A stretch of DNA of 64,000 bases from Rhodocyclaceae bacterium (GCA_030682175.1 JAUXOM010000031.1:1112-65111); one strand, 5' to 3'; positions 2,057 to 57,866 are shown, numbered from the stretch's first letter. Translations and numbers: made by a program. Notes: a model not told the origin generated them from the letters alone.

Positions 2057-2268
2057 GCCCGCCCCTCCCGACCTCCCCTCGCGGGGAGGTGACTGTTGCT
2101 CGCTGCGCTCGTTTGTTACGGGCCGCCCCGTTCAAGCTTGGGCGCGGATTGCGGCTGGCGCCGCGTGCCGCCTTGTGTGCGACAAAGTCGCATTCCGCTG
2201 CGCGGAACCAGCCTTCGGCTGTCCTGCGGCCTACGGCCTTGTCTTGGGGCGGCCCGGCGACAAGGCTA
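2057..2268 (+). repeat. Structured intergenic element, copy A
   Basis: Shares GTGACTGTTGCTCGCTGCGCTCG, GCGGATTGCGGCTGGCGCCGCGTGCCGC and CTTGGGGCGGCCCGGCG with other copies. Confidence 0.85.
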
Positions 2269-2269
2269 C

Positions 2270-2294
2270 CGCCGTCCCGCCAGCGTCGACTTTT
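2270..2294 (-). repeat. 25-bp core motif copy
   Basis: Reverse complement AAAAGTCGACGCTGGCGGGACGGCG. Confidence 0.85.
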
Positions 2295-2319
2295 GCTTTA
2301 GTGTGAAACACCCACTACC

Positions 2320-2340
2320 CGTCACACCGGCGCAGGCCGG
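2320..2340 (+). repeat. REP-like hairpin arm
   Basis: CGTCACACCGGCGCAGGCCGG; inverted counterpart at 4854-4876. Confidence 0.55.
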
Positions 2341-2448
2341 AGAGGCGGCGATCTGGTCATCGGTAATGCCGGCCAAGGCTGCACCATCATTGTGTCTGGG
2401 GCGGGTGAATTGTCGTTCTATCGCCTTCGTCACGCCTTTAATAGTGCC

Positions 2449-2502
2449 TTGACATATTAACGACTACCGTAGTAGTCTTTAACTGTCATCCGCATTGTTA
2501 AA
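2449..2502 (+). promoter_or_regulatory. Sigma70-type promoter with two overlapping inverted repeats upstream of fic
   Basis: TTGACA 2449-2454, TAGTCT 2473-2478; palindromes GACTAC-N4-GTAGTC (2462-2477) and TTTAAC...GTTAAA (2478-2502). Confidence 0.55.
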
Positions 2503-2508
2503 GGCATC

Positions 2509-3669
2509 GTGAAGCGCTCCGACCTCAGCCCTGCGCACCAAAAGCGACTCGTTCCGGTTCCGGACCGGTCGGGGGCATTCGCGCTCATTCCGCCACCGAC
2601 GCCGGCCATGGTGCCGCTGACCGGAATCGAGCATGAGGTGCTCAAGGCACACGAAGCGCTGGGTCTGGTTCGACAACTGGTCACCGACTTGCCGAACCCG
2701 TATCTGATTGCACGCACGCTGGATCGGCGTGAAGCGGTGAAGAGCAGCCAGATCGAGGGTACCCATGCCGAGGTCGATGAGTTGTTCGAGTACGAGGTGA
2801 CCGGAGAAGAGGAAGGCTTGCCTGCCGATGTTCGGGTCACGCTCAACTACGTCGAGGCAATGGATGTCGGTCTCAAGGCGGTTCGACTGGCCGGCACCCC
2901 GGCCATCACGAAATCGCTGATCCAGGATCTGCACCGTGTCCTGATGGAAGGCGTGAAGGACTACCGCGATGCCCCGGGCGACCTGCGCACCATCCAGAAC
3001 TGGATCGGCAGCGGCAACATCCACGACGCCAGCTTGGTGCCACCGCCGCCCAATCAGGTGAGCCCCTGCCTCGACGACCTGATCGGCTTGTTGCAATATC
3101 AAGCAGACGGCGTCGCCGTTGTTTCAATCGTCGTGCGGCTGGCGATCGCACATGCCCAGTTCGAAGCCATTCACCCCTTCCGTGACGGCAACGGCCGTGT
3201 CGGCCGCTTGCTGCTGCCGATCATGCTGGCGGCAGAGGACTATCCGCTGGTCTATCTGGCGGGGTATCTCAAGTCCAACCAGCGCAGTTACTACGACACC
3301 CTGCTGCGCGCACAGACGCGGGGCGAATGGCAAGCGTGGGTACGCTTCCTGGCACGCGGGATCGTCGAGTCCTGCAATGAGGCGGCCGAGATGACGCGCC
3401 GCCTGCTTGCACTGCGTGACGAGTGGCGTCAGCGGGTATCGTCATTGCGAGGCGATGCCACGGGTCGCAAGCTGGTCGAGATCCTGATCGGCGCGCCGAT
3501 CGTGACGGCCAATTCGGTCAAGGAGCAACTCGGCGTGAGTTTCCCGGCAGCAAATACGGCCATAGCGCAACTGGTCGACCTGGGCATCCTGCAGGCCTCC
3601 GAGCGGCGGCGTAACCGGATATTTGTCGCTGATCAGGTGGTGGCACTATTGCGGCGAGGTATTGAATGA
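2509..3669 (+). CDS. Fic family protein with probable C-terminal HTH
   Basis: HPFRDGNGRVGR Fic motif, EAVKSSQIEGT N-terminal motif, C-terminal winged-HTH-like segment; GTG start. Confidence 0.92.
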   Translation: MKRSDLSPAHQKRLVPVPDRSGAFALIPPPTPAMVPLTGIEHEVLKAHEALGLVRQLVTDLPNPYLIARTLDRREAVKSSQIEGTHAEVDELFEYEVTGEEEGLPADVRVTLNYVEAMDVGLKAVRLAGTPAITKSLIQDLHRVLMEGVKDYRDAPGDLRTIQNWIGSGNIHDASLVPPPPNQVSPCLDDLIGLLQYQADGVAVVSIVVRLAIAHAQFEAIHPFRDGNGRVGRLLLPIMLAAEDYPLVYLAGYLKSNQRSYYDTLLRAQTRGEWQAWVRFLARGIVESCNEAAEMTRRLLALRDEWRQRVSSLRGDATGRKLVEILIGAPIVTANSVKEQLGVSFPAANTAIAQLVDLGILQASERRRNRIFVADQVVALLRRGIE

Positions 3670-3876
3670 GCATTTCGAAGACTCCCCCAGTTCTACTTCG
3701 TGACTTCGCGAGAATTTCTCGGAGCCGGTGAATCTTTCGCCCGTATGACTGGGTAGTCATGCGAAGGTGGTTGCCGCCGCCGTGCGGGGCGCAATATGTT
3801 TTTCGCATCGTTTATCCCGCTATTGAACGTTGATTTGTCGATCCCGGAGCAATTCGCTTTCTCAAGCCATCATTCC

Positions 3877-3924
3877 GGGGCAAGAACGTCAGCCCGGAAT
3901 GATTTGATCCGGGGCGGAATTCAG
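3877..3924 (+). repeat. 48-bp direct repeat, copy 1 (REP-like)
   Basis: 43/48 identical to 4788-4835 by manual alignment. Confidence 0.85.
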
Positions 3925-3950
3925 CACAAACAGGGTAAGACCTCGGTTTT

Positions 3951-3973
3951 GCCGTCCCGCCAGCGCCAAACTT
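3951..3973 (-). repeat. Degenerate core motif copy
   Basis: Reverse complement AAGTTTGGCGCTGGCGGGACGGC, inside an ACCTCGGTTT...AAACCGAGGT inverted repeat. Confidence 0.7.
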
Positions 3974-4105
3974 CGGACAGGGAAACCGAGGTGACCCATT
4001 TTTATGACAACATGAGTTCTTGCAAGACTGAATCGACACTCGGTAATCAGCAAATCAGGTAGCATGAACCCCGCCCGTTGGAGGACGAAAAACTCAGGGG
4101 ATCTC

Positions 4106-4495
4106 ATGCAATACACACCACTACATTGGACGTCTGATTACGAGACGGGGATCGAGGAAATCGACCTCCAGCACCACTACTTCATGACCCTAATCAACCG
4201 TATCGAGGATGAGATTCAGCAATCGACGGACCTCGCTTACCACAAGCGCTTGCTGGATGAGCTCTGCAAGTACGCTTCATTTCATTTCATCAGCGAGGAA
4301 AACATCATGCATAAGCTCGGCTACCCGGAGAGGCAGCAACACTATCTGTTGCACCGGAACCTGCTCGACAAGCTCTCCTGGGCCCTCGTGCAACACTCGG
4401 AGGAGAAGTTCATCGGGTTCCTGCACGACTGGTTCTTGCACCACACCGTGACCGAAGACAAAAAGGTCGGCGTATTCGCCCGGACGGTGAACTGA
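4106..4495 (+). CDS. Bacteriohemerythrin
   Basis: W..DYETGIEEIDLQH, HFISEE, YP..QH...H, DWFLHH..TED iron-ligand pattern; GGGGA RBS. Confidence 0.9.
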   Translation: MQYTPLHWTSDYETGIEEIDLQHHYFMTLINRIEDEIQQSTDLAYHKRLLDELCKYASFHFISEENIMHKLGYPERQQHYLLHRNLLDKLSWALVQHSEEKFIGFLHDWFLHHTVTEDKKVGVFARTVN

Positions 4496-4699
4496 CCGGC
4501 ATACAGTCGCGCGCCATAGCGAACAGACCGGTACCTGCCCCTGCCGAGCCCCCACAGGTTTTCTGTGAAATGCGTGCCCCTTTAAATCTTTTACTTTCCA
4601 GCACCCAGATCGACACCACCTGCATCCGCCTCGACTTCACGCAAGTCGTTGCACTGCTGGCAAGTCGCCATGCCTCCGACGCCAAGGCGGCCTCAACAG

Positions 4700-4723
4700 A
4701 AAGTCGGCGCTGGCGGGACGGCG
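4700..4723 (+). repeat. Core motif copy
   Basis: AAAGTCGGCGCTGGCGGGACGGCG, perfect match. Confidence 0.9.
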
Positions 4724-4787
4724 TCAAAGATGATAAGGAGGCAGCGAATGACGGGCGGTGGAGGTTGGTGGCGTGACTGAAGCAGCT

Positions 4788-4876
4788 GGGGCAAGAATGT
4801 CAGCCCGGAATGATTAAATACGGGGCGGAATCCAGGAAAATCAACAACCTGGACACCGGTTTGTGCCGGTGTGACG
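4788..4876 (+). repeat. 48-bp direct repeat copy 2 followed by REP-like right arm
   Basis: Repeat of 3877-3924, then CCAGG...CCTGG and CACCGG-TTTGTG-CCGGTG-TGACG hairpins. Confidence 0.75.
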
Positions 4877-4910
4877 AGCAATCAGCGCTCCTTGGGTATG
4901 ATCTTCACCC

Positions 4911-7430
4911 ATGAACACCCTGAGACTCACTTTACGCATGCTGCTGCGCGACCTGCGCGCCGGCGAGTTGACCGTCCTCGCGCTGGCGCTGGTGCTGGCG
5001 GTGACGGCGCTGACCAGTGTCGGTTTTCTGGCCGATCGGGTCGAGCGGGCGGTCGCGCGCGAGGCGCACCAGTTGCTGGGGGGCGATCTGCTGTTGACGG
5101 CCGATCATCCGTGGCCGGAAACGTTTCGCGCGGCGGCGGAGCGGCATGGCTTGCGGCTGGCGGAAAGCGTCAACTTCGTCAGCATGGTGGCAAGCGCCGC
5201 GGAGAATGGCGGCGTGCAACTGGCCGAAATCAAGGCGGTGTCGGACGGTTACCCACTGCGCGGCGCCCTGCGCATCGCGCCGCGCCTGAATGTCGGCGAT
5301 GGTGAGACGGCGACCATTCCCGCGCCCGGCACGGTCTGGCCCGATGAACGGCTGGCGACCGGACTGGGTGTCGACAGCGCGGCCCGGCTGCGCCTCGGCG
5401 AGCTCGAAACCACAGTGGCGGCCATCGTCACGCTGGAGCCGGATCGTGGCATCAACCCGTTCGCGCTGGCGCCGCGCCTGATCATCAATCTGGCCGACGT
5501 GCCGGCCACTGAGCTGATCCAGCCCGGCAGCCGCGCCCGCTGGCGCCTGCATGTGGCGGGCGACGCGCCGGCTGTTGCCGAGTTTCGCCAGTGGGCGCAG
5601 GCCAATTTGCAGCGCGGCGAGAAACTCGAAAGCCTCGACAACGCGCGCCCGGAAATCCGCAACATCATCGAGCGCGCGCAGCGCTTCCTGCGCCTGGCGG
5701 CGTTGTTGACCGTGGTGCTGGCCGCCGTGGCGGTCGGCATGGCGGCACGGCGCTACATGCAGCGCCATCTGGATGCTTGTGCGGTCATGCGCTGTCTGGG
5801 GGCCAGCGAACGGCAGATTTTGCTGATCCACGGCGGCGAGTTCATCGTGCTGGGTCTGGTGGCCACTCTGCTCGGCGGGGCGCTGGGCTATCTGGCCCAG
5901 GAGGCCTTGCACATGCTGCTGGCCGGACTGGTCGCCGAACAGTTGCCCGCACCCGGCTGGCTGCCCTGGTTGCACGGTCTGGCGGTCGGCAGCGTACTGG
6001 TGGCGGGTTTCGTGCTGCCGCCGCTGCTGCGCCTCAAGTCAGTGCCGACGGTGCGCGTGCTGCGGCGCGAATGGGGCGCGCATTTTGCTGGAGTCGAACC
6101 GCTGTCGGCGGCTTCCTATCTGCTCGGCATGGGCTGTCTGGCCGGGCTGATGTTGTGGATGGCGAATGATGTGCGGCTGGGCAGCGTGGTGCTGGGTGGT
6201 TTTCTGGTCGCGGTGGCGGTGTTCGCCCTGGCCGGACAGGGCTTGCTGGTGCTGCTTGGCCGCTTGCCGGCCCGGCTGCTGTCTGGCGGTTGGCGCATCG
6301 GGCTGGCCAATCTGCACCGCCGCGCCGGGGCGACGCTGGTGCAGGTGGTGGCGCTGGCGCTGGGGCTGACCACGCTGCTGATCCTGACGCTGGCAAAAGA
6401 CGATCTCATGTCGGTTTGGCAGACCCAGACGCCGCCCAACGCGCCCAACCGTTTTCTCATCAACGTGCAGCCCGATCAGCGCAGCGCCATCGGCGACTTT
6501 TTCGTGAATAAGGGATTGCCCGCGCCGCGCCTCGAACCGATGGTGCGCGGGCGGCTGACCAGCGTGAATGGCCGCAAGGTGGCGCCGCGCGATTTTGTCG
6601 ATGAACGCGCCCAGCGTCTCGTCGAGCGCGAGTTCAACCTGTCGAGCCGCGATGACCTGCCGCCCGGCAACCGGGTCGTCGCCGGGCGCTGGCATGCTGG
6701 CGATGGCCCCTCACGCGCGCCAATCCCGCTCTCGGTGGAAAAGGGTCTGGCCGATACGCTCAACCTGCACATCGGCGACGAACTGCTGTTCGACATCGGC
6801 GGCCAGCCGTTTGTCGCGCAGATCGCCTCGCTGCGCAGCCTTGAATGGGACTCGATGCGCGTCAATTTCTTCGTCATCGCGCCAGCCGGCAGCATGGACG
6901 ATCAGCCCACCAGTCTCATCACCAGCTTCCACTTGCCGGACGGCAGTGAAACGATCATCAGCGATCTGGTGCGGCAGTTTCCGAACCTCACGGTGATCGA
7001 CGTGGCCGCGCTGGTGCGGCAGTTGCGGAATACGCTCGACCAGGTGGCGCGCGCGGTGCAACTGGTGTTCGGCTTCGCCCTGCTGGCCGGGCTGGTGGTG
7101 CTGTATGCCGCGCTGCAGGCCAGCGCCGGCGAGCGCAATCACGAGCTGGCAGTGTTGCGCGCGCTCGGCGGCCGGCGCCGCCAGTTGCATCAGGCATTAT
7201 TTGCGGAATTTGCCACGCTCGGTGCGCTGGCGGGCTTGCTCGCCGGCCTGGCCGCCACGGCCATCGGCACGGCGCTGGCGCGCTGGGTATTCCAGCTCGA
7301 CTATCTGCCAACCCCCAGCCTGCTCTTGGTCGGCTTGCTGGCCGGGTTGGCCGGGGTAGCGCTGGCAGGTCTCATGGCGACCCGCAAGGCGCTGGCCGGG
7401 CAGGTGGTGGAAGGCCTGCGCGGCGTTTGA
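4911..7430 (+). CDS. ABC transporter permease, FtsX/YbbP-like
   Basis: MLLRDLRAGEL start, two FtsX-like membrane blocks, F.INVQPDQ and VEREFNLS motifs; 839 aa. Confidence 0.88.
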   Translation: MNTLRLTLRMLLRDLRAGELTVLALALVLAVTALTSVGFLADRVERAVAREAHQLLGGDLLLTADHPWPETFRAAAERHGLRLAESVNFVSMVASAAENGGVQLAEIKAVSDGYPLRGALRIAPRLNVGDGETATIPAPGTVWPDERLATGLGVDSAARLRLGELETTVAAIVTLEPDRGINPFALAPRLIINLADVPATELIQPGSRARWRLHVAGDAPAVAEFRQWAQANLQRGEKLESLDNARPEIRNIIERAQRFLRLAALLTVVLAAVAVGMAARRYMQRHLDACAVMRCLGASERQILLIHGGEFIVLGLVATLLGGALGYLAQEALHMLLAGLVAEQLPAPGWLPWLHGLAVGSVLVAGFVLPPLLRLKSVPTVRVLRREWGAHFAGVEPLSAASYLLGMGCLAGLMLWMANDVRLGSVVLGGFLVAVAVFALAGQGLLVLLGRLPARLLSGGWRIGLANLHRRAGATLVQVVALALGLTTLLILTLAKDDLMSVWQTQTPPNAPNRFLINVQPDQRSAIGDFFVNKGLPAPRLEPMVRGRLTSVNGRKVAPRDFVDERAQRLVEREFNLSSRDDLPPGNRVVAGRWHAGDGPSRAPIPLSVEKGLADTLNLHIGDELLFDIGGQPFVAQIASLRSLEWDSMRVNFFVIAPAGSMDDQPTSLITSFHLPDGSETIISDLVRQFPNLTVIDVAALVRQLRNTLDQVARAVQLVFGFALLAGLVVLYAALQASAGERNHELAVLRALGGRRRQLHQALFAEFATLGALAGLLAGLAATAIGTALARWVFQLDYLPTPSLLLVGLLAGLAGVALAGLMATRKALAGQVVEGLRGV

Positions 7431-7473
7431 TCTGGTGCAAGCATTTCCCGCTGTTGTGTACCATAATGGATTT

Positions 7474-9291: not shown

Positions 9292-9410
9292 CCAAGCACG
9301 CTGGGCCGCCAAGGTAAATAGCCCATTTGCGCTTGATGGGCATGCAGCCGGTGGCGTTGCGGCCCTCGGTCAGTCGGTTAGAATCGGGTACCGATTTCCG
9401 AAAGGCACCG

Positions 9411-10013: not shown

Positions 10014-10496
10014 ATGCAAATCGATAAACATACAATAGTCACCCTGGCCTATAGCGTCACGGATAGCGAGGGCAATCTGATCGACGCGGGCGAGCATCCG
10101 CTGACCTATCTGCATGGCGGTTATGGCGGCATCTTCGAGAAAATCGAAGAGGAGCTTGTCGGCCAGGTGGCCGGTTTTCAGAAAGCAATCCGCCTGCAGC
10201 CCGAGGAAGCCTTCGGCGAATATGACGCCGAGCTCGTGATGATGGAACCGCGCGACCTGTTCCCGGAAGACATCGAGGTCGGCATGCAGTTCGAGCGCGC
10301 CTCCAGCAAGGAAGACGAAGACGGCATGCTGTTTACCATTACCGACATTGCTGAAGGCAAGGTGGTGGTCGATGGCAATCATCCGCTGGCCGGCATGGCA
10401 CTGGTGTTCTCCTGCACCGTCAGCGATGTGCGTGCTGCCACCCCCGAAGAAATCGAACATGGTCACGCGCACGGCGAGGGCGGGCATCTGCACTAA
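10014..10496 (+). CDS. slyD: FKBP-type peptidyl-prolyl isomerase SlyD
   Basis: YLHG, PEEAFGEYD, VDGNHPLAG, His-rich tail. Confidence 0.93.
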   Translation: MQIDKHTIVTLAYSVTDSEGNLIDAGEHPLTYLHGGYGGIFEKIEEELVGQVAGFQKAIRLQPEEAFGEYDAELVMMEPRDLFPEDIEVGMQFERASSKEDEDGMLFTITDIAEGKVVVDGNHPLAGMALVFSCTVSDVRAATPEEIEHGHAHGEGGHLH

Positions 10497-10502
10497 GTTG
10501 AG

Positions 10503-10710
10503 GCCCGCCCCTCCCATCTTCCCCGCGCGGGGAGGTGACTGTTGACTCGCTGCGCTCGTTTGTTACGGGGAGCGTTGTTTCGACTGGGAAGCGGATTGCG
10601 GCTGACGCCGCGTGCTGCCTTGCCTTGGCAGCTCTCAGGAGGCTATCTGCCTCATCTCTCCCGCGGGGAGAGAGGTCGGGAGAGCGGGATTGGCCCGGCG
10701 ACGAGGCTGC
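10503..10710 (+). repeat. Structured intergenic element, copy B
   Basis: Same conserved blocks as copy A, with an extra insertion inside the CTTGG...GGCCCGGCG loop. Confidence 0.8.
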
Positions 10711-10724
10711 CGGGGGGGCGTTAA

Positions 10725-11603
10725 TTGTCCGAGCGCTGGAGCGGGGTGTTGTGGATTGTCCTGTCGGCGGCGGGATTCGGCGCCATGGCGATCTTCGCCA
10801 AGCTGGCCTATCAGGACGGCGTTTCTCTTTCCACCATGTTGTTCCTGCGATTCAGCTTCGCCGGCCTGCTGCTGGCCGCCTGGGGCATGGCGCACGGCAT
10901 GCGTTGGCCACGCGGGCGCGATCTGCTCTGGCTGTTGGCCATGGGTGGCGTGGGCTATGTCGGGCAGGCCTATTGTTATTTCTCCGCCCTGCAACATGCC
11001 AGCGCCGGACTCGTGGCCCTGCTGCTTTACCTCTATCCGGCGATTGTCACGCTGTTGTCGGCGCTGGCTTTCGGCCGTCGCATCGGCCCCGCCCGCGGCT
11101 GGGCGGTGGCCGTGGCGCTGGCGGGCACGGCCTTGACGGTGGGTGGCGACCTGAACAGCGCGCCGCTGGGGATTGCGCTGGGCATCGGCGCCGCGCTGAT
11201 CTATTCGATCTACATCCTGGCTGGCGAGGGCGTGATGCGGCGGGTGCCGCCACTGCCGGCCGCGACGGTGGTGATGCTGGCCGCCGCTGCAGTGTATGGC
11301 GGGGCAGCGTTCAATGCCGGTCTGGCGCCGCCGGCAACATCCGCGGGGTGGCTGGCGGTGCTGGCGATTGCGATTTTCTCTACCCTGCTGGCGATCCTGG
11401 GTTTCCTCAAGGGCATGGAAAAACTCGGTGCCACCGATGCCTCGACGCTATCCACGCTGGAGCCGCTGATCACGATCGGCCTGGCCGCCATCGTGCTGGG
11501 CGAAGTGGTCAGCGAACTGCAACTGGTCGGCGGCGGATTGATACTGGCGGCGATCATCTTCCTCGCCCGGCACGGCGCGCGCCGGGTGGCTACTACAGAG
11601 TAA
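10725..11603 (+). CDS. DMT/EamA family transporter
   Basis: About 10 hydrophobic helices in two EamA repeats; TTG start. Confidence 0.88.
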   Translation: MSERWSGVLWIVLSAAGFGAMAIFAKLAYQDGVSLSTMLFLRFSFAGLLLAAWGMAHGMRWPRGRDLLWLLAMGGVGYVGQAYCYFSALQHASAGLVALLLYLYPAIVTLLSALAFGRRIGPARGWAVAVALAGTALTVGGDLNSAPLGIALGIGAALIYSIYILAGEGVMRRVPPLPAATVVMLAAAAVYGGAAFNAGLAPPATSAGWLAVLAIAIFSTLLAILGFLKGMEKLGATDASTLSTLEPLITIGLAAIVLGEVVSELQLVGGGLILAAIIFLARHGARRVATTE

Positions 11604-11674
11604 CCAGTCATGCGCCGAGCCGTCTCAAGCATGGCGCAGCCAGGCAGCCGGAGCCGCGCAGCGGCGAACCGGTG

Positions 11675-12487: not shown

Positions 12488-12715
12488 GCCCGCCCCCCTT
12501 TGTGCGCCGTTGGCGCATCCCTCGCTTCGCTCAGGACCGCTGCTACGCAGCGTCCTGCGGCCTGCGGCCTTGTGCCCCCCTCGCGGGGGGTTCTCGTTTG
12601 CGCGCTGCGCGCGGCTATTACGGGGTGCTTCGTTTGGCTGCAGAGCGGGTTGCGCCTGGCGGCGCGTGCCGCGTTTGCTTGGGGCGGCACTGCGCAAACA
12701 CTGCGGTGTGTCACG
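12488..12715 (+). repeat. Structured intergenic element, copy C
   Basis: Closely similar to 43327-43565, including the internal CTCGCTTCGCTCAGGACC...GTCCTGCGGCCTGCGGCCT module. Confidence 0.85.
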
Positions 12716-12755
12716 TTCATCGTCGTTGCTGGCGAGTTGGCGCGGGGAATCAGGC

Positions 12756-13253: not shown

Positions 13254-13278
13254 AAAAGTCGGCGCTGGCGGGACGGCG
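13254..13278 (+). repeat. Core motif copy
   Basis: AAAAGTCGGCGCTGGCGGGACGGCG, perfect match. Confidence 0.9.
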
Positions 13279-29243: not shown

Positions 29244-29390
29244 GCCCTCCCCTCCCGGCCTCCCCGCATGGGGAGGTGACTGTTGCTCGCTGCGCTCGAA
29301 TATTACGGGGCGCGTCAATATTGATTCTGGTACGGATTGCGGCTGGCGCCGCGTGCCGCCTTTCCTTGGGGCGGCCCGGCGGAAAGGCTA
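29244..29390 (+). repeat. Structured intergenic element, copy D
   Basis: Conserved blocks as in copy A; stem GCCTTTC/GAAAGGC. Confidence 0.85.
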
Positions 29391-29395
29391 CATAG

Positions 29396-30299: not shown

Positions 30300-30323
30300 A
30301 AAGTCGGCGCTGGCGGAACGGCG
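30300..30323 (+). repeat. Core motif filling the dapE-prmB gap
   Basis: AAAGTCGGCGCTGGCGGAACGGCG occupies 24 of the 29 intergenic bases. Confidence 0.88.
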
Positions 30324-32653: not shown

Positions 32654-32819
32654 CGTCAACAGTCACATCGGAGTCCTGGCGCCGTGCCGCCCCAAGCCGG
32701 GGCGTCACGCGCTGCAGGCGCAACCCGCGCGTATGCTCGCCCAGCGCACCCCGTAACCGACGCGCGCAGCGAGCCACAGTCACCCCCTTCCGCGGGAAGG
32801 GGGATGGGGGGAAGGGGGC
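32654..32819 (-). repeat. Structured intergenic element, copy E
   Basis: Reverse complement has GGGGTGACTGTGGCTCGCTGCGCGCG...TTACGGGG and CTTGGGGCGGCACGGCG. Confidence 0.8.
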
Positions 32820-32821
32820 CA

Positions 32822-33640
32822 TCAATCGCGCAGCAGTTCGTTGATGCTGGTCTTGGAGCGGGTCTGGGCATCGACCTTCTTGACGATCACCGCACAGTAG
32901 AGGCTGTACTTGCCATCCTTCGACGGCAGGCTGCCGCTGACGACGACGGAGCCTTCCGGGACGCGACCGTAGATCACTTCGCCGCTGGCGCGGTCGTAGA
33001 TCTTGGTGCTCTGGCCGATGAACACGCCCATCGAGATGACGCAGTTGTCCTCGACGATGACGCCTTCGACGACCTCGGAGCGCGCGCCGATGAAGCAGTT
33101 GTCGCCGATGATGGTCGGATTGGCCTGCAAGGGTTCGAGCACGCCGCCGATGCCGACGCCGCCGCTCAAATGCACGTGCTTGCCGATCTGTGCGCAAGAG
33201 CCGACGGTGACCCAGGTATCGACCATCGTGCCTTCGCCGACATAGGCGCCGATGTTCACGAAGCTGGGCAACAGTACCGCGTTGTTGCCGATGAAGGAAC
33301 CGCGCCGCACCACGGCGCCGGGGACGACGCGATAACCGCCTTTCTGGAAGTCATGTGCATCGAAATTGGCGAACTTGGTCGGCACCTTGTCGAAATAGCG
33401 CATGGCGCCACCATCCATCAGCACGTTGTCTTCCAGGCGGAAGGACAGCAGCACGGCCTTCTTGATCCACTGGTGGGTTACCCACTGCCCATCGATTTTC
33501 TCGGCGACGCGCAGGGTGCCCTTGTCGAGTTCGGCAAGGACGTGCTCGACCGCCTCGCCGACGCGGGCGGGTGCGGCGCCGGGTTTCAGGTTGGCGCGGT
33601 CTTCCCAGGCCTGCTCGATGAGTATTTGCAATTCGGACAT
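32822..33640 (-). CDS. dapD: Tetrahydrodipicolinate N-succinyltransferase
   Basis: [36 protein letters not shown]. Confidence 0.97.
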
Positions 33641-40170: not shown

Positions 40171-40935
40171 GTGATCCGCTTCGCCTCGCTCGGCAGCGGC
40201 AGCAAGGGCAACGCGCTGCTCGTCGAGTCCGGGCGTACCCGCGTGCTGGTCGATTGCGGTTTCGGCCAGCGCGAAATGGCGCGCCGGCTGGAACGACTGG
40301 GTATTGAGCCGGCATCCGTCGATGCCGTCCTGGTCACCCACGAACATGCCGATCATGTCGGCGGCGTGGCCCGTTGCGCCGCCCGCTTTGGCTGGACGGT
40401 GCATGCCAGCCATGGCACGACGGCAGCCGCACGGCAGCTTGCCGACCTTGCCGTGCGGCGCTTCGACAGCCATGCCAGCTTCCCCATCGGCGACATCGAG
40501 ATACACCCCTATCCCGTGCCGCACGACGCGCGCGAGCCGACGCAGTTTGTATTTTCCGACGGAGCAGCACGTCTCGGTCTGCTCACCGACGCCGGCATGA
40601 TCACCCCCCATATCGTCGCCATGCTGGCCAAGTGTGCGGCGCTGGTGCTCGAAGCCAACCATGACGCCGCAATGCTTGCCAATGGCCGCTATCCCCCGCC
40701 ACTGAAGCGGCGCATCGCCGGCGGCTTCGGCCATCTCGACAATGCCGCCGCGGCCGGCCTGTTGCGCACGCTGGGTGGCGGGCGGCTGCAGCATGTGGTG
40801 GCCGCCCATCTTTCCGCGGAAAACAATACGCCTGACCTGGCGCGAACCGCCTTCGCCACTGCGCTGGGCTGCAGCACCGAATGGATCGGCGTGGCCGACC
40901 AGGCCACCGGCTGCGGCTGGCGCGAACTGCGGTAA
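40171..40935 (+). CDS. MBL-fold metallo-hydrolase (YycJ-like)
   Basis: SLGSGSKGN, THEHADH, PHDAREP, EANHD, AHLSAENN. Confidence 0.92.
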   Translation: MIRFASLGSGSKGNALLVESGRTRVLVDCGFGQREMARRLERLGIEPASVDAVLVTHEHADHVGGVARCAARFGWTVHASHGTTAAARQLADLAVRRFDSHASFPIGDIEIHPYPVPHDAREPTQFVFSDGAARLGLLTDAGMITPHIVAMLAKCAALVLEANHDAAMLANGRYPPPLKRRIAGGFGHLDNAAAAGLLRTLGGGRLQHVVAAHLSAENNTPDLARTAFATALGCSTEWIGVADQATGCGWRELR

Positions 40936-40958
40936 AAGTCGGAGCTGGCGGGACGGCG
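40934..40958 (+). repeat. Core motif overlapping the stop codon
   Basis: AAAAGTCGGAGCTGGCGGGACGGCG. Confidence 0.85.
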
Positions 40959-42020: not shown

Positions 42021-43325
42021 ATGAATCCAGTCACCATCGAATCGCTTGACTACGAAGGGCATGGCGTCGCCCATGTCGAGGGCAAGGCCATCTTCATCGA
42101 TGGCGCGCTGCCAGGCGAACTCGTTACCTTTACTTCTTACCGCCGCAAGCCGAAGTTCGAGAGTGCGGGCGTCGATGCTGTTCTCAAGACGTCCAGTCAG
42201 AGGGTTACGCCGGCCTGCCCGCATTTTGGCGTGTGCGGCGGCTGCAGCATGCAGCATCTGGATGCGACGGCACAGGTGGCCGCCAAGCAGCGGGTGCTGG
42301 AAGATGCCTTCTGGCATCTGTCGCGATTGAGGCCCGCGACGATCCTGTCGCCGATCATCGGTCCCGCCTGGGGCTATCGTCGGCGTGCGCGGCTGACGGT
42401 GCGCAAGGTCGAGAAAAAGGGTTGCGTGCTGGTCGGTTTCCATGAAAAGCGGCGCAGTTTTGTGGCTGACATGGATTCCTGCGCCGTCCTGCCAGCGCCG
42501 ATTTCTTCCCTGTTGCCGAAAATGCGCGAACTGATTGCGGCCTTGTCGATCCCCGACCGCGTGCCACAAATCGAGGTGGCCGCCGGCGACATGCCGACGG
42601 TGCTGGTGCTGCGCATTCTGGAAGCAATCTCAAATGACGACGCGGTGCTGCTGCGCGAATTTGCCGACCGGCATGGTGTGACGATCTACCTGCAAACCAG
42701 CGGGCCGGAAAGCGCCACATTGTTCCATCCGCCCGATGCGCCGATGCCGGCCTATCACCTGCCCGAGTTCGGCGTCACCCTGCGTTTTCGGCCGACCGAT
42801 TTCACGCAGGTCAATCATGATGTGAATCGGGTGCTGGTGCGGCGGGCGCTGGGGCTGCTGGATATCCAGCCGGACGACCGGGTTGCCGACATGTTCTGCG
42901 GCCTCGGTAACTTCACCCTGCCGCTGGCGCGCTGGGGTGCCCGGGTGGTGGGTGTCGAGGGGAGTGCGCCTTTGCTGGAGCGGGCGAAGGAGAATGCGGT
43001 GTTCAATGGTCTGGCCGACCGCATCGAATACCACGTGGCCAACCTGTTCAAGGTGACGCCGGAAAGCCTGGCGGCCTGGGGCAGCTTCGACAAGATGCTG
43101 ATCGATCCGCCGCGCGACGGGGCAATGGAACTCATCAAGTCGCTGGGCGGCCCAGGTGAGGCTGCACCTTCACGGATCGTCTATGTCTCGTGCAGTCCCG
43201 CAACACTGGCACGCGATGCCGGCGTGCTGGTGCATGAAAAGGGCTACCGGCTGGTTGCGGCGGGGGTTGCCAACATGTTCCCGCATACCTCGCACGTCGA
43301 ATCGATCGCGCTGTTCGCGCGGTAA
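42021..43325 (+). CDS. rlmD: 23S rRNA m5U1939 methyltransferase
   Basis: TRAM domain, [43 protein letters not shown]. Confidence 0.95.
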
Positions 43326-43326: not shown

Positions 43327-43731
43327 GACGCCCGCCCCCCTTTGTTTGGCTGCGCCGAATCCCTCGCTTCGCTCAGGACCGCCACTTCGTGGCGTCCTGC
43401 GGCCTGCGGCCTAGTGCCCCCTCGCGGGGGGTTCGATACAGATCGCTTTCGCTCACATATCACGGGGCGCTCTGATCAAATGTGCGTGCGGATTGCGGCA
43501 TTCTCCGCGTGCCGCGTTTGCTTGGGACGGCCCGGCGCAAACGCTGCGGTGTCTTTCACGGTCAAGACGCCCGCCCCCCTTCGCCCCCCTCGCGGGGGGT
43601 TCGATACAGATCGCTTGCGCTCCAATATCACGGGGCGCTACGATCAAGTGTGGTGCGGATTGCGGCATTCGCCGCGTGCCGCGTTTGCTTGGGACTGCCC
43701 GGCGCAAACGCTGCGGTGTCTTTCAGGTTAA
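43327..43731 (+). repeat. Two tandem structured elements, F1 (43327-43565) and F2 (43566-43731)
   Basis: Both begin GACGCCCGCCCCCCTT and end GCGGTGTCTTTCA; F2 lacks a ~73-nt internal module. Confidence 0.9.
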
Positions 43732-43758
43732 GCGAGCTACTCCACAGCCTAGCCAGGG

Positions 43759-48568: not shown

Positions 48569-48660
48569 CGCCGTACCCCATGTTGGCGGCGCACCGGCTG
48601 CGCCGTACCCCATGCGGGGCATTTCATCCCACCAGCGCCGTCCCGCCAGCGCCGACTTTT
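48569..48660 (-). repeat. Core motif plus duplicated half-core with 21-nt insert and a truncated insert
   Basis: Reverse complement AAAAGTCGGCGCTGGCGGGACGGCG-CTGGTGGGA[TGAAATGCCCCGCATGGGGTA]CGGCG. Confidence 0.85.
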
Positions 48661-48665
48661 ATTCA

Positions 48666-48817
48666 GCAGCCTTGCCGCCGGGCCGCCCCAAGGCAAGGCG
48701 GCACGCGGCGCCAGCCGCAACCCGCGCCCAAGTTTTAACGGGGGCTCCCCGTAACAAACGAGCGCAGCAAGTCAACAGTCACCCCTCCCGTGAGGGAGGG
48801 GCTGGGGGAGGGTGGGT
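48666..48817 (-). repeat. Structured intergenic element, copy G
   Basis: Conserved blocks as in copy A; stem GCCTTGC/GCAAGGC. Confidence 0.85.
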
Positions 48818-48821
48818 CTAT

Positions 48822-49295: not shown

Positions 49296-49309
49296 GGTGG
49301 TTATCCCTT

Positions 49310-51889: not shown

Positions 51890-51905
51890 GGCTGGCAGGA
51901 ACGAA

Positions 51906-52706: not shown

Positions 52707-52782
52707 GAATGGCTATATGGGGATGAATCGAATAATTCTAACCGCTGTGCCGGGTCGCGGAGCAAGGCACATGTAAGCACTA

Positions 52783-52812
52783 TTGAGGTTTGCTGCATTT
52801 CATAGCTATAAT
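52783..52812 (+). promoter_or_regulatory. Putative rpsB promoter
   Basis: TTGAGG-N18-TATAAT. Confidence 0.55.
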
Positions 52813-52839
52813 CCGCGGCTTGTCTGAATTTATTGGACA

Positions 52840-52929
52840 AAATTCACACACCCGGCGCCGAGTGGGTGCCGTGCCAATGTTGGCGCGGAGACCGGCCGGG
52901 TGGCGGATAACCCATATCGGAGATATGTT
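52840..52929 (+). promoter_or_regulatory. rpsB 5' leader (S2 autoregulatory RNA structure)
   Basis: CACACACCCGG...GGGTGCC...CCGGGTGG..ATAACCC resembles the proteobacterial rpsB leader. Confidence 0.5.
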
Positions 52930-53682
52930 ATGAGCACAACCATGCGTCAAATGCTGGAGGCCGGCGTGCATTTCGGCCACCAGACCCGTTTCTGGAACCC
53001 CAAGATGGCCCCGTACATTTTCGGCCATCGCAACAAGATTCACATCATCAACCTTGAGAAGACGCTCGCCAAGTTCAACGAAGCGACGGACTTCATCAAG
53101 AAGATGTCCTCCCGCAAGGGGAATGTCCTGTTTGTCGGCACCAAGCGTCAGGCGCGGGAAATCCTCTCCGAAGAGGCGCAACGCGCAGGCATGCCCTACG
53201 TCGATGAGCGTTGGTTGGGCGGCATGCTGACCAATTTCAAGACCGTCAAATTGTCGCTGAAGCGTCTCAAGGACATGGACCAAATGGCCGAGGACGGCGC
53301 CTTCGAAAAAATGCCGAAAAAAGAGGCATTGATGATGCAGCGCGAGCACGTCAAACTGCAAAAGAGCCTGGGTGGCATCAAGGATATGGCGGCGCTGCCC
53401 GATGCGATCTTCGTGATCGACGTTGGCTACCACAAGATTGCCGTCACCGAAGCCAAAAAACTGGGTATTCCGGTGGTCGGTGTAGTGGATACCAATCACA
53501 CGCCCATTGGCATTGACTATGTGATCCCGGGTAATGACGATTCGTCAAGCGCCATTCGTCTCTATGCGCGCGGGATTGCGGATGCGGCCCTCGAAGGCAG
53601 AAACCAGTCGCTCAACGAAGTGGTGCAGCAAATGGTTGGCGACGACGAGTTTGTCGAAGTCGAAGAAGAGGCTGCTGAATAA
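52930..53682 (+). CDS. rpsB: 30S ribosomal protein S2
   Basis: [35 protein letters not shown]. Confidence 0.98.
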
Positions 53683-53727
53683 AGTTTGCGCTTGCGCTGG
53701 TGCCATGCACACGTGTCACGCCGGCTG

Positions 53728-53794
53728 AAAAGCCGGCGCTGGCGATAGGTTCACGTGACACGCCAGCTGTAAAGTCGGCGCTGGCGAGACGGCG
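53728..53794 (+). repeat. Two core motif copies in rpsB-tsf gap
   Basis: AAAAGCCGGCGCTGGCGA (53728) and AAAGTCGGCGCTGGCGAGACGGCG (53771-53794). Confidence 0.8.
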
Positions 53795-53851
53795 GCAATC
53801 TTGCCGCCGTGCCCAGCGGCCCATGAATATCTGAACTTTGGAGTAAAACGA

Positions 53852-54751
53852 ATGGCGGAAATTACCGCAAGCATGGTTAAGGAACTGCGCGAAAAGACTG
53901 ACGCGCCGATGATGGAATGCAAGAGGGCGCTGACCGAAGCGGCCGGCGATCTGGCCAAGGCCGAGGAGATTTTGCGCGTCAAGCTGGGCAACAAGGCAAG
54001 CAAGGCGGCAACCCGTATTGCCGCTGAGGGTGTGGTTGGCTTGTACCTGGCTGCCGATGGCAAGCTGGGCGTTTTGCTTGAAGTTAACTCCGAGACCGAC
54101 TTCGTTGCGAAGAACGATGAATTTATCGCGCTCGCGAAAGGCTGTGCCGAACTGGTCGCCAAGCAGAATCCTGCCGATGTCGCAGCGCTGTCGGCGCTGT
54201 CGATGGGCGAGGGCACGGTCGAGTCCACCCGCGCTGCCCTGGTTGGCAAGATCGGCGAGAACATGACGCTACGCCGTTTCGCGCGCGTTGCCGCGGTGGG
54301 CAAGCTGGGTTCCTATGTGCATGGCGGTTCGAAGATCGGGGTGTTGGTCGATGTCACCGGTGGCGACGAGCAGTTGGCCAAGGATCTGGCCATGCACATT
54401 GCCGCCTCGAAACCCAAGTCCCTTGATTCCTCCGGCGTTCCTGCGGAACTGCTGGATACCGAGCGGCGCATTGCCATCGAAAAAGCCCGCGAATCCGGCA
54501 AGCCGGAAGCGATGCTGGAAAAAATCGCCGAGGGTACGGTACAGAAATATCTCAAGGATGTGACCCTGCTGGGTCAGGTGTTCGTCAAGGCCGAAGATGG
54601 CAAACAGACCATCGAGCAGTTGCTTAAAGCTAAAAACGCCAAGGTCAATGGCTTTACCTTGTATGTCGTGGGTGAGGGCATCGAGAAGAAAGTGAATGAC
54701 TTCGCTGCCGAAGTGGCCGAACAGGCAGCGGCGGCTGCTGCCAAGAAGTAA
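53852..54751 (+). CDS. tsf: Elongation factor Ts
   Basis: [26 protein letters not shown]. Confidence 0.97.
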
Positions 54752-54762
54752 GCGTTTCAGCC

Positions 54763-55488
54763 ATGACCATCGCCGCTTCTCCCAAATACCGGCGCATCCT
54801 GCTCAAGCTTTCGGGCGAAGCGCTGATGGGCAATGATGCCTTTGGCATCAATCGCGAGACGCTGGGGCGAATCGTCAATGAGATCAGGATGGTGACCGAT
54901 CTCGGTGTGGCGGTTGGCGTGGTAATCGGCGGAGGGAATATTTTTCGTGGCATGGCGGGGGCCGCCTCCGGCATGGATCGCGCCGCTGCCGACTACATGG
55001 GCATGCTGGCCACGGTCATGAATGCGATGGCGCTGGCGGATGCCATGCGCCAGGCCGGCTTGCCGGCGCGCGTGCAGTCGGCGCTCAAGATCGATCAGGT
55101 GGTCGAGTCCTACATCCGGGGCAAGGCGATCCGCTATCTGGATGATGGCAAGGTCGTCATCTTCGGCGGTGGCACGGGCAACCCCTTCTTCACCACCGAT
55201 ACGGCGGCGGCATTGCGCGGCGCGGAAATCGGTGCGGAGATCGTCCTCAAGGCCACCAAGGTGGATGGCGTGTATAGCGCCGACCCCAAAAAAGATCCGA
55301 CGGCGACACGTTTTTCCAGCATCAGCTTCGATGAGGCGATTGGCCGCAATCTGGCGGTGATGGATAGCACGGCGTTTGCCCTGTGCCGTGACCAGAAGTT
55401 GCCGATCAATGTGTTTTCGATCTTCAAGGCAGGTGCGCTGAAGCGCGTGGTGATGGGTGAGGATGAAGGCACGCTCGTACACTGTTAG
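54763..55488 (+). CDS. pyrH: UMP kinase
   Basis: [27 protein letters not shown]. Confidence 0.97.
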
Positions 55489-55497
55489 GAGTTTTTC

Positions 55498-56058
55498 ATG
55501 ATCATCGATGAACTTAAAAAAACCACCGAACACAAGATGCAGCGGAGCCTCGAGCTTCTTCGGCTGGACCTCGCCAAGGTGCGCACTGGCCGCGCCCATA
55601 CCGGGCTGCTGGACCATGTTCAGGTTGATTATTACGGCACGCTGATGGCGATCAACCAGGTCGCCAACATCACCCTGCTGGATGCCCGTACCATCGGTGT
55701 GCAACCGTGGGAGAAACCCATGGTTGCCAAAGTGGAGAAGGCGATTCGTGATGCCGATCTTGGCTTGAACCCGGCCACCCAGGGCGACATGTTGCGCGTA
55801 CCGATGCCGGTATTGACCGAAGAGCGTCGCCGCGACCTGATCAAGGTCGTCAAGAATGAGGGCGAGACCGCCAAGGTGGCGATTCGCAATCTGCGCCGCG
55901 ATGCCAACACTCACCTCAAGGACGCCCTCAAGAAGCATGAGGTTCCCGAGGATGAAGAGCGGCGTGCCCAGGATGATGTCCAGAAACTCACCGACAAATA
56001 TGTCGCCGAGGTGGACAAGCTGCTGGCTGAAAAAGAGAAGGATCTGATGGCCATCTAG
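55498..56058 (+). CDS. frr: Ribosome recycling factor
   Basis: RTGRA, QPWEK, TEERRR, IRNLRRD. Confidence 0.97.
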
Positions 56059-56082
56059 GCCATCTGTTCAGCCACGCCAACG

Positions 56083-56877
56083 ATGGCGGATTACAACAGT
56101 TCGACACTCACCATCCCGGAGTCTCGGGATGTGCCGCGTCATGTGGCGATGATCATGGATGGCAATGGCCGCTGGGCGAAGAAGCGTTTTTTGCCCCGCG
56201 TGGCCGGTCACCAGCAGGGGGTCGAGACGGTCCGGCAGGTCGTCAAGACCTGTATCGAGCATGGCATCGAATATCTGACGCTATTTGCCTTCAGTTCGGA
56301 AAACTGGCGCCGCCCGGCCGAGGAAGTCGGGTTTCTCATGAACCTGTTTGTCATGGCGCTCCAGCGCGAGGTCGGCCGTTTGCATAAGAACGGTGTGCGT
56401 TTGCGGGTGATTGGCGACCTGTCTGCCTTCGAACCGCGACTGATTGAGCTGATTCGCCGTGGCGAGAACCTTACGGCGGGCAATGACAAGCTGGTCCTGA
56501 CGATTGCCGCCAATTACGGTGGCCGCTGGGACCTGATGCAGGCGTTCAATGGCCTGGTTCTGGCGAATCCTGAAAAAGCCGGGGCATACACCGAGGCCGA
56601 TCTCGAGCCTTTCCTGGCGATGAGTTATGCCCCGGAACCCGATTTGTTCATTCGCACTGGTGGCGAGCAGCGCATCAGCAACTTTCTGCTCTGGCAACTG
56701 GCCTATTGCGAGCTGTTTTTTACCGACAAGTTCTGGCCGGATTTCGATGCGAACACACTGGATGCCGCCATTCAGAGCTATCGGCGGCGCGAGAGGCGCT
56801 TTGGCCGTACCAGCGAACAACTGCTCGACAAGAAAACAGTGCAGTCGACATTAAGTACCGCGGAGTCAAATGCTTAG
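56083..56877 (+). CDS. uppS: Undecaprenyl diphosphate synthase
   Basis: [34 protein letters not shown]. Confidence 0.97.
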
Positions 56878-57670
56878 GGCGCGGGTGATTACCGCGCTGT
56901 TTCTGGCCGCCGGTTTTCTTGCCGTATTGTTTTTTCTGCCCGAGTCCCTGGTCGGAATAGTGTTTGCCATCATTGCCGCATTGGCTGCCTGGGAATGGGC
57001 CGGTTTGATGAAGCCGGGCAAGCCGGGCGCAGCGTTTCGCCTCCTGTATGCCGGTTTAGTGCTCGGTCTGTGCGGCGCGCTCTGGGCCATGCCGTATGAC
57101 TATTCGACCTTGCCCGTATTAATGTGGTCGGTGTCCGCCCTGTTTTGGCTGTTCATCGTGCCAGTCTGGCTGATGCGTGGCTGGCGGCCCGGTTGGGCCG
57201 GATATGTTGTTGGCCTGATTCTGCTGGTACCCGCCTGGGCAGCGCTGGTGGCCTTGTATGCGCATGGCCCGCTGGTGCTCCTGGCGGTCATGGCGCTGGT
57301 CTGGGTCGCCGACATTGCAGCGTACTTTACCGGTCGGGCTTTCGGACGGCACAAACTGGCGCCCGCCATCAGTCCGGGAAAAACCTGGGAGGGCGTGGCC
57401 GGGGCCGTTGTCGGCGTAGTGCTGGTTGGCCTGCTCCTCAGTAAGCTTCTGCCGCTGGCTCATGGCCTGGGCTGGGTGCCGCTGGCCGGTTTCCTGCTGC
57501 TCTTTACGGCATTCAGCATCATCGGCGACCTGTTTGAATCGCTGATCAAGCGCCAGGCCAACATGAAGGACAGCAGTCAGATGCTGCCAGGCCATGGTGG
57601 CATACTGGACCGCATCGACAGTCAGATGTCCACCCTGCCGCTGGCGGCTTTGACGCTGCATTGGATATAG
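56870..57670 (+). CDS. cdsA: Phosphatidate cytidylyltransferase
   Basis: [33 protein letters not shown]. Confidence 0.96.
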
Positions 57671-57676
57671 AGTAAT

Positions 57677-57866
57677 TGGCCCCCCACGCTCGTAAATTCG
57701 ACTCGCTGCCCCCCACAGGGGGGCGCATGCCTCCTTGGGGCGGCCCGGCGGAGGCATGGGTGGCCCCCCACGCTCGCAAATTCGACTCGCTGCCCCCCAT
57801 GAAATCACCCGCAGCGGTGACGGGTGAACTTATGCCTCCTTGGGACGGCCCGGCGGAGGCATGGTG
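57677..57866 (+). repeat. Two tandem hairpin elements (family H); second carries a 21-nt module and overlaps the dxr start
   Basis: GGCCCCCCACGCTCG.AAATTCGACTCGCTGCCCCCCA...ATGCCTC-CTTGGG(G/A)CGGCCCGGCG-GAGGCAT twice. Confidence 0.88.

Follow-up and report, generated by a model that had tools for sequence, protein, structure and literature searches.

A repeat family with an invariant folded hairpin tip appears to be an expanded, modular variant of the Beta-proteobacterial repeat element

A 64,000-nt stretch of a draft genome labelled Rhodocyclaceae bacterium (GCA_030682175.1, JAUXOM010000031.1:1112-65111; hereafter, the window) carries between positions 2,057 and 57,866 a series of repeated elements that end in a hairpin with a near-invariant 17-nt tip. 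Judged by the sequence blocks that it shares with published units, the family does not appear to be new: it would be a strongly expanded, modular variant of a known and barely studied repeat, the Beta-proteobacterial repeat element (BRE). The conserved feature is a folded tip, strand-specific through two U.G pairs, that sits on a lower stem of 7-9 bp whose sequence is free to vary yet stays paired. We consider it probable that one lineage has expanded and diversified the BRE superfamily to give these elements, and propose, less firmly, that their tip is read by a trans-acting factor.

Compensatory change provides the main evidence for a conserved structure. Across the genome, stem positions 1-7 were paired in 78-94% of 223 distinct arm pairs, compared with 40-60% when partners were shuffled and 0-88% (mostly 17-68%) when the arms were slid by 1-2 positions; all four Watson-Crick pair types were found at each stem position. 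The outcome was similar for 123 arm pairs taken from other Betaproteobacteria. A cross-genus alignment was built from 17 copies, one per genome and representing ~12 genera, namely the window copy at 57677-57760 and 16 units from elsewhere. In its consensus fold, all variable pairs (7/7) showed double compensatory changes, in 1-10 sequences each, with at most two broken cells per pair. The initial annotation of the window had described a stem that differs among copies but remains paired, and had named a larger alignment as the place where covariation might disappear; it held both in the 17 copies and in the 223 arm pairs. Its proposal of a conserved structure on one strand is likewise supported: compensatory changes affect the lower stem, the three G-C pairs of the tip, and the second hairpins of composite and BRE-type copies, which covary too.

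The 17-nt stretch had been taken for a near-constant loop. Its sequence is indeed nearly invariant, but it does not form an open loop. Instead, it folds into a tip of its own, with C1-G17, a bulged C16, U2.G15, U3.G14, G4-C13, G5-C12, G6-C11 and a GCGG tetraloop; single-sequence folds and the 17-copy consensus fold gave the same hairpin. Because of its two U.G pairs, the tip is specific to one strand. Conservation per position was 89-99%, with the exception of G7 (A in 19%). Pair 5-12 is A-T in five copies of the genome, and also in locus L004 and in the window copy at 11613; pair 4-13 is A-T in locus L073 and C-G in locus L006; and 13 copies have C in place of U2 opposite G15. Rfam, to which the initial annotation had pointed, gave no gathering-score match in the whole window, and only noise at E<=10 on 57600-57960.

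Within the window, a search with CTTGGGGCGGCCCGGCG, allowing up to three mismatches, returned 10 matches against 0.84 expected from shuffled sequence. The tip was present with up to two mismatches in nine of the ten copies first listed (2243, 12678, 29365, 32680(-), 43521, 43688, 48676(-), 57734 and 57839). All ten are real. The tenth, at 10503, is genuine, with an otherwise invariant tip that is split between CTTGG and GGCCCGGCG by a hairpin-forming insertion of 63 nt (10629-10691), and an eleventh copy was added at 11613(-). The stem sequences first quoted proved correct on re-reading, the stem of the 32680(-) copy being degenerate. The copies fall into subfamilies F1 to F4, described below, and are located as follows.

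2057..2293, plus strand: composite (F1-type) copy after a gene ending at 2051, with an extra internal module
2236-2266, plus strand: hairpin of the 2057 copy; stem GCCTTGT/ACAAGGC, tip 2243-2259; a copy of a 25-nt motif (2271-2293) lies directly 3'
10501..10727, plus strand: F1-type copy after a gene ending at 10496; tip interrupted by the nested 63-nt insertion at 10629-10691
11601..11641, minus strand: short hairpin copy, the eleventh, absent from the first list; tip 11613-11629, CTTGAGACGGCTCGGCG; short stem CATG/CATG
12488..12720, plus strand: F1-type copy with an internal module, antisense to both flanking genes; tip 12678-12694, stem GCGTTTG/CAAACAC
29244..29392, plus strand: F1-type copy between convergent genes; tip 29365-29381, stem GCCTTTC/GAAAGGC
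32654..32826, minus strand: composite copy between two minus-strand genes, sense; tip 32680-32696, degenerate lower stem
43327..43565, plus strand: F1 copy, first of a tandem pair, after a gene ending at 43325; tip 43521-43537
43566..43740, plus strand: F1 copy, second of the tandem pair; tip 43688-43704, stem GCGTTTG/CAAACGC; absent from the relative G024
48660..48820, minus strand: F1 copy between convergent genes; tip 48676-48692, stem GCCTTGC/GCAAGGC; abuts a copy of the 25-nt motif at 48637-48659
57677..57760, plus strand: BRE-type (F3) unit of 84 nt between cdsA and dxr; 5' GGCCCCCCACGCT block and C6/G6 hairpin
57734-57750, plus strand: tip of the terminal hairpin of the 57677 unit; stem ATGCCTC/GAGGCAT
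57761..57866, plus strand: second BRE-type unit, of 105 nt, with a 24-nt module inserted; tip 57839-57855; the 3' arm, GAGGCATG, contains the new dxr start

The tip at 11613(-) bears a compensatory G5A/C12T change (U in RNA). The copy at 43327 contains an extra internal module of ~78 nt that is not in the single orthologous copy of G024. Each copy follows directly after a stop codon and in the direction of that gene, the 12488 copy excepted, as the initial annotation had stated. The size that it gave, 150-240 bp, suits the composite copies and not those at 57677 and 57761, which measure 84 and 105 nt.

It is these two shorter units that link the family to a published repeat. The units described for Bordetella pertussis, when reverse-complemented, read CCCCCACGCT and GCTGCCCCCCGAGGGGGC, then stem, CTTGGGCGGCCCGCG and stem. 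Block order and spacing are the same as in the window at 57677-57760, the Bordetella text having been compared by eye and not by an alignment program, and the 16 units from other genera that were aligned with this window copy agree in the same way; the block architecture recurs in Achromobacter, Hydrogenophaga, Variovorax, Burkholderia and others. Because three blocks are held in common with the B. pertussis BRE, the copies at 57677 and 57761 appear to be BRE units (Hot et al. 2011, PMC3110155), and the 150-240-nt copies would be composite relatives that carry the BRE 3' hairpin. The published BRE consists of ~90-bp units (75-91 bp) in head-to-tail tandem arrays of variable number, which lie mostly between genes with some within open reading frames (ORFs), show no co-orientation with replication, reach a maximum of 29 copies per genome, are restricted to Betaproteobacteria and have no assigned function (Hot et al. 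2011, BMC Genomics 12:207, PMC3110155). In Bordetella, a region with one BRE gives rise to a transcript of ~80 nt, BprJ1 (PMC3110155). Our literature search found the tip sequence in no paper, and no BRE paper beyond PMC3110155. The initial annotation had named as grounds for refutation a full match to a described family of repetitive extragenic palindromic (REP) sequences or miniature inverted-repeat transposable elements (MITEs); the core unit does match a described repeat, BRE, which refutes it in part, whereas the hairpin, the invariant tip and the covariation are not described in PMC3110155.

The tip is widespread in this bacterial class. An exact 17-mer scan of one genome per species gave at least 120 loci, of which at least 118 were in other Betaproteobacteria. 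Among the 120 matches listed, all but one were labelled Betaproteobacteria or had broader or unassigned labels; the lone exception, a stemless match in Stenotrophomonas, is probably due to chance. Hosts include Hydrogenophaga, Polaromonas, Rhodoferax, Variovorax, Acidovorax, Ramlibacter, Roseateles, Ideonella and Aquincola, as well as Achromobacter, Pigmentiphaga, Castellaniella, Burkholderia, Methyloversatilis, Zoogloea, Sulfurisoma and Thiobacillus. At most of the loci listed, the tip lies within a unit of ~80 nt, composed of GCCCCCACGCT, a small variable hairpin, CGCTGCCCCCCGAGGGGGC, stem, tip and stem, and units elsewhere in Betaproteobacteria are sometimes tandem, with periods of 60 or 81-85 nt. 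The 60-nt period belongs to tandem arrays at three loci (L033, L075 and L115; Pseudorhodoferax, Roseateles and another) that are made of a different, shorter unit with the same tip at its end. Their 3' flank reads ATGAGC... on the opposite strand, and these arrays may sit at the 5' ends of genes on that strand. The tip also occurs in phage sequence: 49 viral contigs of IMG/VR (L162-L210) contain it exactly. Of the 58 copies in them, 47 have a stem of at least 6 bp together with the complete BRE architecture, frequently with CATGATG, at the start of a gene, as their last bases. Betaproteobacterial phages carry BREs and could be a means of their spread. In a plasmid collection there were few tip matches, all in large secondary replicons except one on an Acidovorax plasmid.

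In the window's own genome (draft, 3.49 Mb, 61.9% G+C) the family is far larger than the window suggests. The genome-wide collection of copies that the initial annotation had proposed yielded 321 with up to two mismatches in the tip, 179 of them exact, with 110 distinct 7-mers on the 5' arm. They divide into F1 (composite, 150-240 nt; 116 copies), F3 (BRE-type, with unit lengths and tandem periods of 81, 84 and 105 nt; 78), F4 (46), F2 (41) and other or variant copies (40). All four subfamilies share one 3' module, the terminal hairpin, and the 150-240-nt composites share both this BRE hairpin and the C/G-run blocks. Other modules are optional. A 24-nt module (consensus ATGAAATCACCCGAAGCGGTGAC; window instance 57799-57822) occupies a fixed spot in the C-run/G-run hairpin of BRE-type units, occurs in 27 copies genome-wide and turns 81-nt units into 105-nt units; a second, ACCAGCCTTCGGCTGTCCTGCGGCCT, with 17 copies, is placed before the terminal hairpin of F1 and F2 (e.g., 2190-2235 in the window). 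A locus of a metagenome-assembled genome labelled Thiobacillus sp. (L118) is 99.2% identical to the window's genome, which is therefore probably that of a Thiobacillus sp. Within the genus, copy number ranges from 0 to ~280, with the maximum in the window's own clade; the close relatives G024 (91% identity) and G015 (89%) have 225 and 181 copies, and three sister genomes have ~180-240.

Genes were called with our own codon-usage gene finder, which covered 87% of the genome and gives approximate start codons. By these calls, 219 of 277 well-stemmed copies are intergenic. Co-directional spacers hold 114 copies in the sense and 20 in the antisense orientation (85% sense, p = 4e-17), and there are 52 copies in convergent spacers and 11 in divergent ones, though divergent spacers are longer. 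On each of the two skew-defined strands the copies are oriented with the gene (37:2 and 33:9); a bias towards one replication strand found no support in this skew-based test, which is weak. F1 favours the 3' ends of genes, with 44 copies in convergent spacers among them, and F3 is made up of 40 co-directional intercistronic, 5 convergent and 25 intragenic copies. The description of an intergenic family is correct for most copies and not for the ~38 (~13%) that lie deep within ORFs. RecC, RecB, DabA and Lnt were verified by Pfam as hosts of in-frame copies. Such inserts are read in at least five of six frames, on both strands, and add 27-35 residues to real proteins. The units are nearly free of stop codons in all frames (66-96% of copies are open per frame), and most of their lengths are multiples of three. 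A TTG within the tip (CTTGGGG; e.g., window 57840) is often the first in-frame start of a downstream ORF, and our first gene call, based on the longest ORF, wrongly began genes inside the hairpin in ~20 cases. The units inflate predicted ORFs through such false starts, and they also break assemblies.

Copies are gained and lost between close relatives, and the family is mobile. A comparison of 436 kb of G024 with the window's genome revealed 39 collinear gaps holding copies, including ~19 clean filled/empty pairs, in both directions. At cdsA/dxr, G024 has a bare ATGA stop/start overlap where the window's genome has two units, and this junction is also short in G015, G002, G003, G005, G006 and G016. 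Head-to-tail tandem arrays have periods of 81, 84 and 105 nt. Insertion junctions showed mostly microhomology of 0-4 nt, with direct repeats of 8-14 nt at a few; the 5' block weakly resembles the reverse-complemented tip, which is itself not terminal. Terminal inverted repeats and a fixed-length target-site duplication, the marks of a MITE, were lacking. One 'empty' allele (case 4) is plainly an internal deletion, so deletion occurs too. In the same-species assembly L118, a convergent spacer that in the window's genome (G000, contig C67:28306-28666) has two facing F1 copies is replaced (L118:73-320) by ~250 nt of different sequence, which contains a long hairpin repeat of its own as well as one copy of the 25-nt motif; with the whole spacer replaced, the site gives no clean recent insertion.

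This 25-nt motif, GCCGTCCCGCCAGCGCCGACTTT, has 516 genomic copies (up to two mismatches), many of them within genes. The motif opens with 8 nt that are reverse-complementary to the tip core, GGGACGGC, and closes with 11 nt identical to the tip end plus 3' arm of a subfamily with a GTCGG/CCGAC stem. Members of that subfamily are found exclusively at one fixed place in the motif, and their insertions have 11-14 nt, GCGCCGACTT(T), repeated at both ends. The window contains the following copies of the motif.

2271-2293 and 48637-48659, plus strand: 25-nt motif
132-154, 4700-4722, 13255-13277, 30300-30322, 40935-40957, 53771-53793 and 59486-59508, minus strand: 25-nt motif

The insertion between cdsA and dxr has a further property. 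It supplies the stop codon of cdsA. From a TTG at 57676, just past that stop, a frame continues through both units as far as a TGA; the new start of dxr overlaps this TGA and belongs to the 3' arm of the last hairpin. Many F3 copies begin with TAATGG or TGATGG, in which a stop overlaps a start, and many end in CATGA, with the reverse overlap of a start with a stop. Among the non-genic F3 copies, 53 in all, a stop-overlapping start lies in the common frame in 17, and the full arrangement is seen in 13. Such a mini-frame would end in ATGA or GTGA over the downstream start, which would be paired in the hairpin's 3' arm or lie directly after it. Translation of the mini-frame is predicted to open the hairpin and to hand translation on to the downstream start, as proposed for the mycobacterial interspersed repetitive units (MIRUs). 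On this reading of the frames, the stem would have to pair because the downstream start is released only by upstream translation. The class-wide invariance of the tip is left unexplained by such mini-cistrons, and the tip therefore points to a reader that acts in trans.

Of the other explanations that we weighed, it is possible that the hairpin is mainly a functional RNA kept by the host, as a stabiliser in 3' untranslated or intercistronic regions, a processing site or a protein-docking hairpin, with mobility secondary or ancient; stable ~80-nt RNAs like BprJ1, from its BRE-containing Bordetella region (PMC3110155), would be included. Such a role, akin to the 3'-UTR processing element or structured ncRNA that the initial annotation had listed, would suit the 85% sense orientation on both skew-defined strands, two U.G pairs that are possible on one strand only, the enrichment after genes and rarity in divergent promoter spacers (11 copies against 52 in convergent ones), and second hairpins that covary too. 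It would also suit the copy at 48660-48820, which G024 shares and which is by eye better conserved than its flanks (~89% identity). Selfish spread nevertheless fits better with a copy number of 0 to ~280 in one genus and fast turnover of sites, and a host function is hard to square with in-frame copies within proteins, which are read in five or more frames and occur on both strands; there was also no Rfam match, and public RNA contigs gave no transcript ends. We think it unlikely that the stem complementarity is a product of the insertion or copying mechanism and not of selection, the 3' arm being the target and the 5' arm a guide or templated complement (as in IS200/IS605 guide-target pairing, or hairpin-templated repair). 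What recommends the idea is that in the GTCGG/CCGAC copies within the 25-nt motif, part of the tip and the whole 3' arm are target sequence; that the 'empty' allele of one F4 site (case 13) already has the 3' arm as native region upstream of a start codon; that two 'empty' alleles (cases 5 and 6) keep CCGGCG and the 3' arm; and that arm diversity is very high (41 arms in 78 F3 copies and 27 in 46 F4 copies). Yet the 3' arm is missing from the empty allele at four of five clean F3/F4 sites (cases 12, 15, 16 and 19), cdsA/dxr included, and the proposition that the 3' arm is always target sequence is thereby refuted at most clean sites. F1 and F2 insertions bring both arms with them (cases 1, 2, 3, 7, 14 and 17), and arm-retaining alleles can be deletion derivatives, as case 4 clearly is.

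The initial annotation had suggested a substrate of an HUH or REP-associated tyrosine transposase (RAYT), and had proposed looking for a RAYT or IS200-like gene flanked by the elements. We consider it very improbable that these are REP/REPIN-type substrates of such a Y1 enzyme, a reading already largely refuted. The elements do resemble REPs as abundant palindromic extragenic repeats after genes, the genome has three Y1_Tnp (HUH) genes, and a Y1 gene of ~250 aa is present in four of four checked genomes with 181-277 copies (G000, G021, G024 and G015) and lacking, as a type, from two zero-copy genomes. Set against this, the Y1 proteins score 61 bits where the cut-off of the RAYT model is 80; the gene is missing from genomes with 97, 53, 39 and 32 copies and present both in genomes with 2-6 copies and in zero-copy outgroups. 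The one Y1 gene whose flanks were read (L121:1380-2215, on contig C44 of G000; transposase-like, 243 aa) is bracketed by its own perfect 16-nt inverted repeat, AAAAGGGGCCAGGCTC / GAGCCTGGCCCCTTTT, and not by hairpin elements; this repeat is absent from the window, and the gene is apparently part of an element distinct from the hairpin family and without relation to it. REP hairpins carry a conserved GTAG (or CGTC) tag at the foot (PMC3733652), whereas foot sequences differ here between subfamilies, with only the tip conserved, and we found neither a GTAG or CGTC tag nor inverted REP doublets. Orientation tracks transcription and not replication, and in Bordetella it does likewise (Hot et al., PMC3110155).

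We return to the reading that we favour, an expanded BRE superfamily with a tip read in trans. BRE units are gene-less, non-autonomous mobile repeats, and would be selfish DNA shaped to do little harm, being nearly stop-free in six frames and mostly of lengths that are multiples of three. The weakest step is the proposal that the invariant tip is a cis-acting site for a factor that Betaproteobacteria share with their phages and that acts in trans; this factor would most likely be the mobilising activity, or alternatively an RNA-binding or RNA-processing protein. Several observations weigh against this account. Searches of Y1 genes, IS110 genes, neighbouring genes and master copies found no tip-reading factor: over 41 genomes, presence of a Y1 gene showed no correlation with copy number; an IS110 transposase is found in G000 and G024 and is missing from two other carriers, G020 (97 copies) and G022 (53 copies); and ORFs within 1.5 kb of the tip at the 120 loci listed belong only to common families, the clusters being ABC transporters, histidine kinases, short-chain dehydrogenases/reductases, LysR regulators and molybdopterin enzymes. 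Junctions of the filled/empty pairs with G024 had no fixed target-site duplication and no convincing terminal inverted repeats, the latter in keeping with the initial annotation, which had seen neither such repeats nor a transposase; no linked transposase was found. In some 'empty' alleles the 3' half of the tip remains along with the 3' arm, which could reflect deletion or homology-guided insertion. The full mini-cistron arrangement is present in only about one quarter of BRE-type copies and in none of F1, the core of the original finding, and the GGAGG in the 3' arm is too near the ATG for a normal ribosome-binding site. Public RNA data, available as assembled contigs only, showed no transcript ends. 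The skew-based strand calls revealed no gene-strand bias (956 vs 939), the skew of the draft being weak and the test of low power.

Other candidates for a mobiliser were also rejected. An autonomous master copy was sought in the distances from 5' modules to the next tip, which contained no class of ~1-2 kb, and inverted pairs enclose only ordinary-looking ORFs of varied size. Repeat-bearing bins of the public RNA contigs have 10-60x summed depth, which is explained by repeat collapse alone. More speculatively, the tip may be the handle of a previously undescribed, class-wide mobilisation route that operates without a linked transposase, a fixed duplication or terminal inverted repeats. Such a route could depend on an enzyme conserved in the host or in phages, or on copying templated by a hairpin or by homology that also resets stem complementarity, and it would move stop-free units into stop/start junctions and the in-gene 25-nt motif, across Betaproteobacteria and their phages. 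None of the usual transposases accompanies the copies. Their insertions fall exactly on junctions between translationally coupled genes, or keep the frame within essential repair genes.

Several known systems invite comparison. Rickettsia palindromic elements (Ogata et al. 2000) are reportedly palindromic mobile repeats that lie in frame in protein genes and are translated; like them, the elements described here insert in frame in coding genes and are translated as extra peptide segments. The Rickettsia elements differ in having no sequence relation and another host class, and they are not known to be built around an invariant tip or to form intergenic mini-cistrons. The REP elements, bacterial interspersed mosaic elements and REPIN-RAYT systems of Enterobacteria and Pseudomonas are also abundant, GC-rich extragenic hairpins after genes with compensatory stems, found occasionally within genes, including repair genes of the recBCD type (PMC2817692, PMC3116915, PMC3733652). 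In REPs the foot of the stem is conserved and the loop variable, whereas here the tip is invariant and the stem variable, with neither inverted doublets nor a cognate RAYT. MIRUs, intercistronic repeats through which translation is handed on (Supply et al. 1997, as cited in PMC3110155), are similar in being short tandem repeats within operons, varying in tandem copy number, with small frames that overlap the stop and start of flanking genes (predicted from sequence in our case). They differ in having no sequence relation and in their Actinobacteria hosts, and they are not known to carry a hairpin with a conserved tip; the full overlap arrangement is found here in only about one quarter of BRE-type copies.

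The closest relative is BRE itself, so far the subject of one descriptive paper that proposes no function (PMC3110155). Unit size agrees (75-91 bp in BRE; 81-105 nt in BRE-type units of the window's genome), as do the three conserved blocks, including a hairpin tip for which Bordetella has CTTGGGCGGCCCGCG, shorter by two bases. Head-to-tail arrays of variable copy number are common to both (at 43327/43566, two copies here and one in G024). Both are mostly intergenic with some copies inside ORFs (here 219/277 intergenic and ~38 deep in ORFs), occur in Betaproteobacteria only (here among the matches listed, the one stemless Stenotrophomonas match aside) and show no co-orientation with replication, the skew-based test here being weak. 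In contrast to the maximum of 29 copies per genome in PMC3110155, we counted 321; and that paper describes no hairpin, invariant tip or covariation, does not contain the 150-240-nt F1 composites or F2 and F4 (which have mainly the terminal hairpin and C/G-run blocks in common with it), and does not include Thiobacillus among the hosts. What is newly seen for BRE is a folded, invariant tip on a paired, variable stem, from Thiobacillus to relatives of Bordetella and in phage contigs, together with one lineage that has more than 300 copies in several modular forms.

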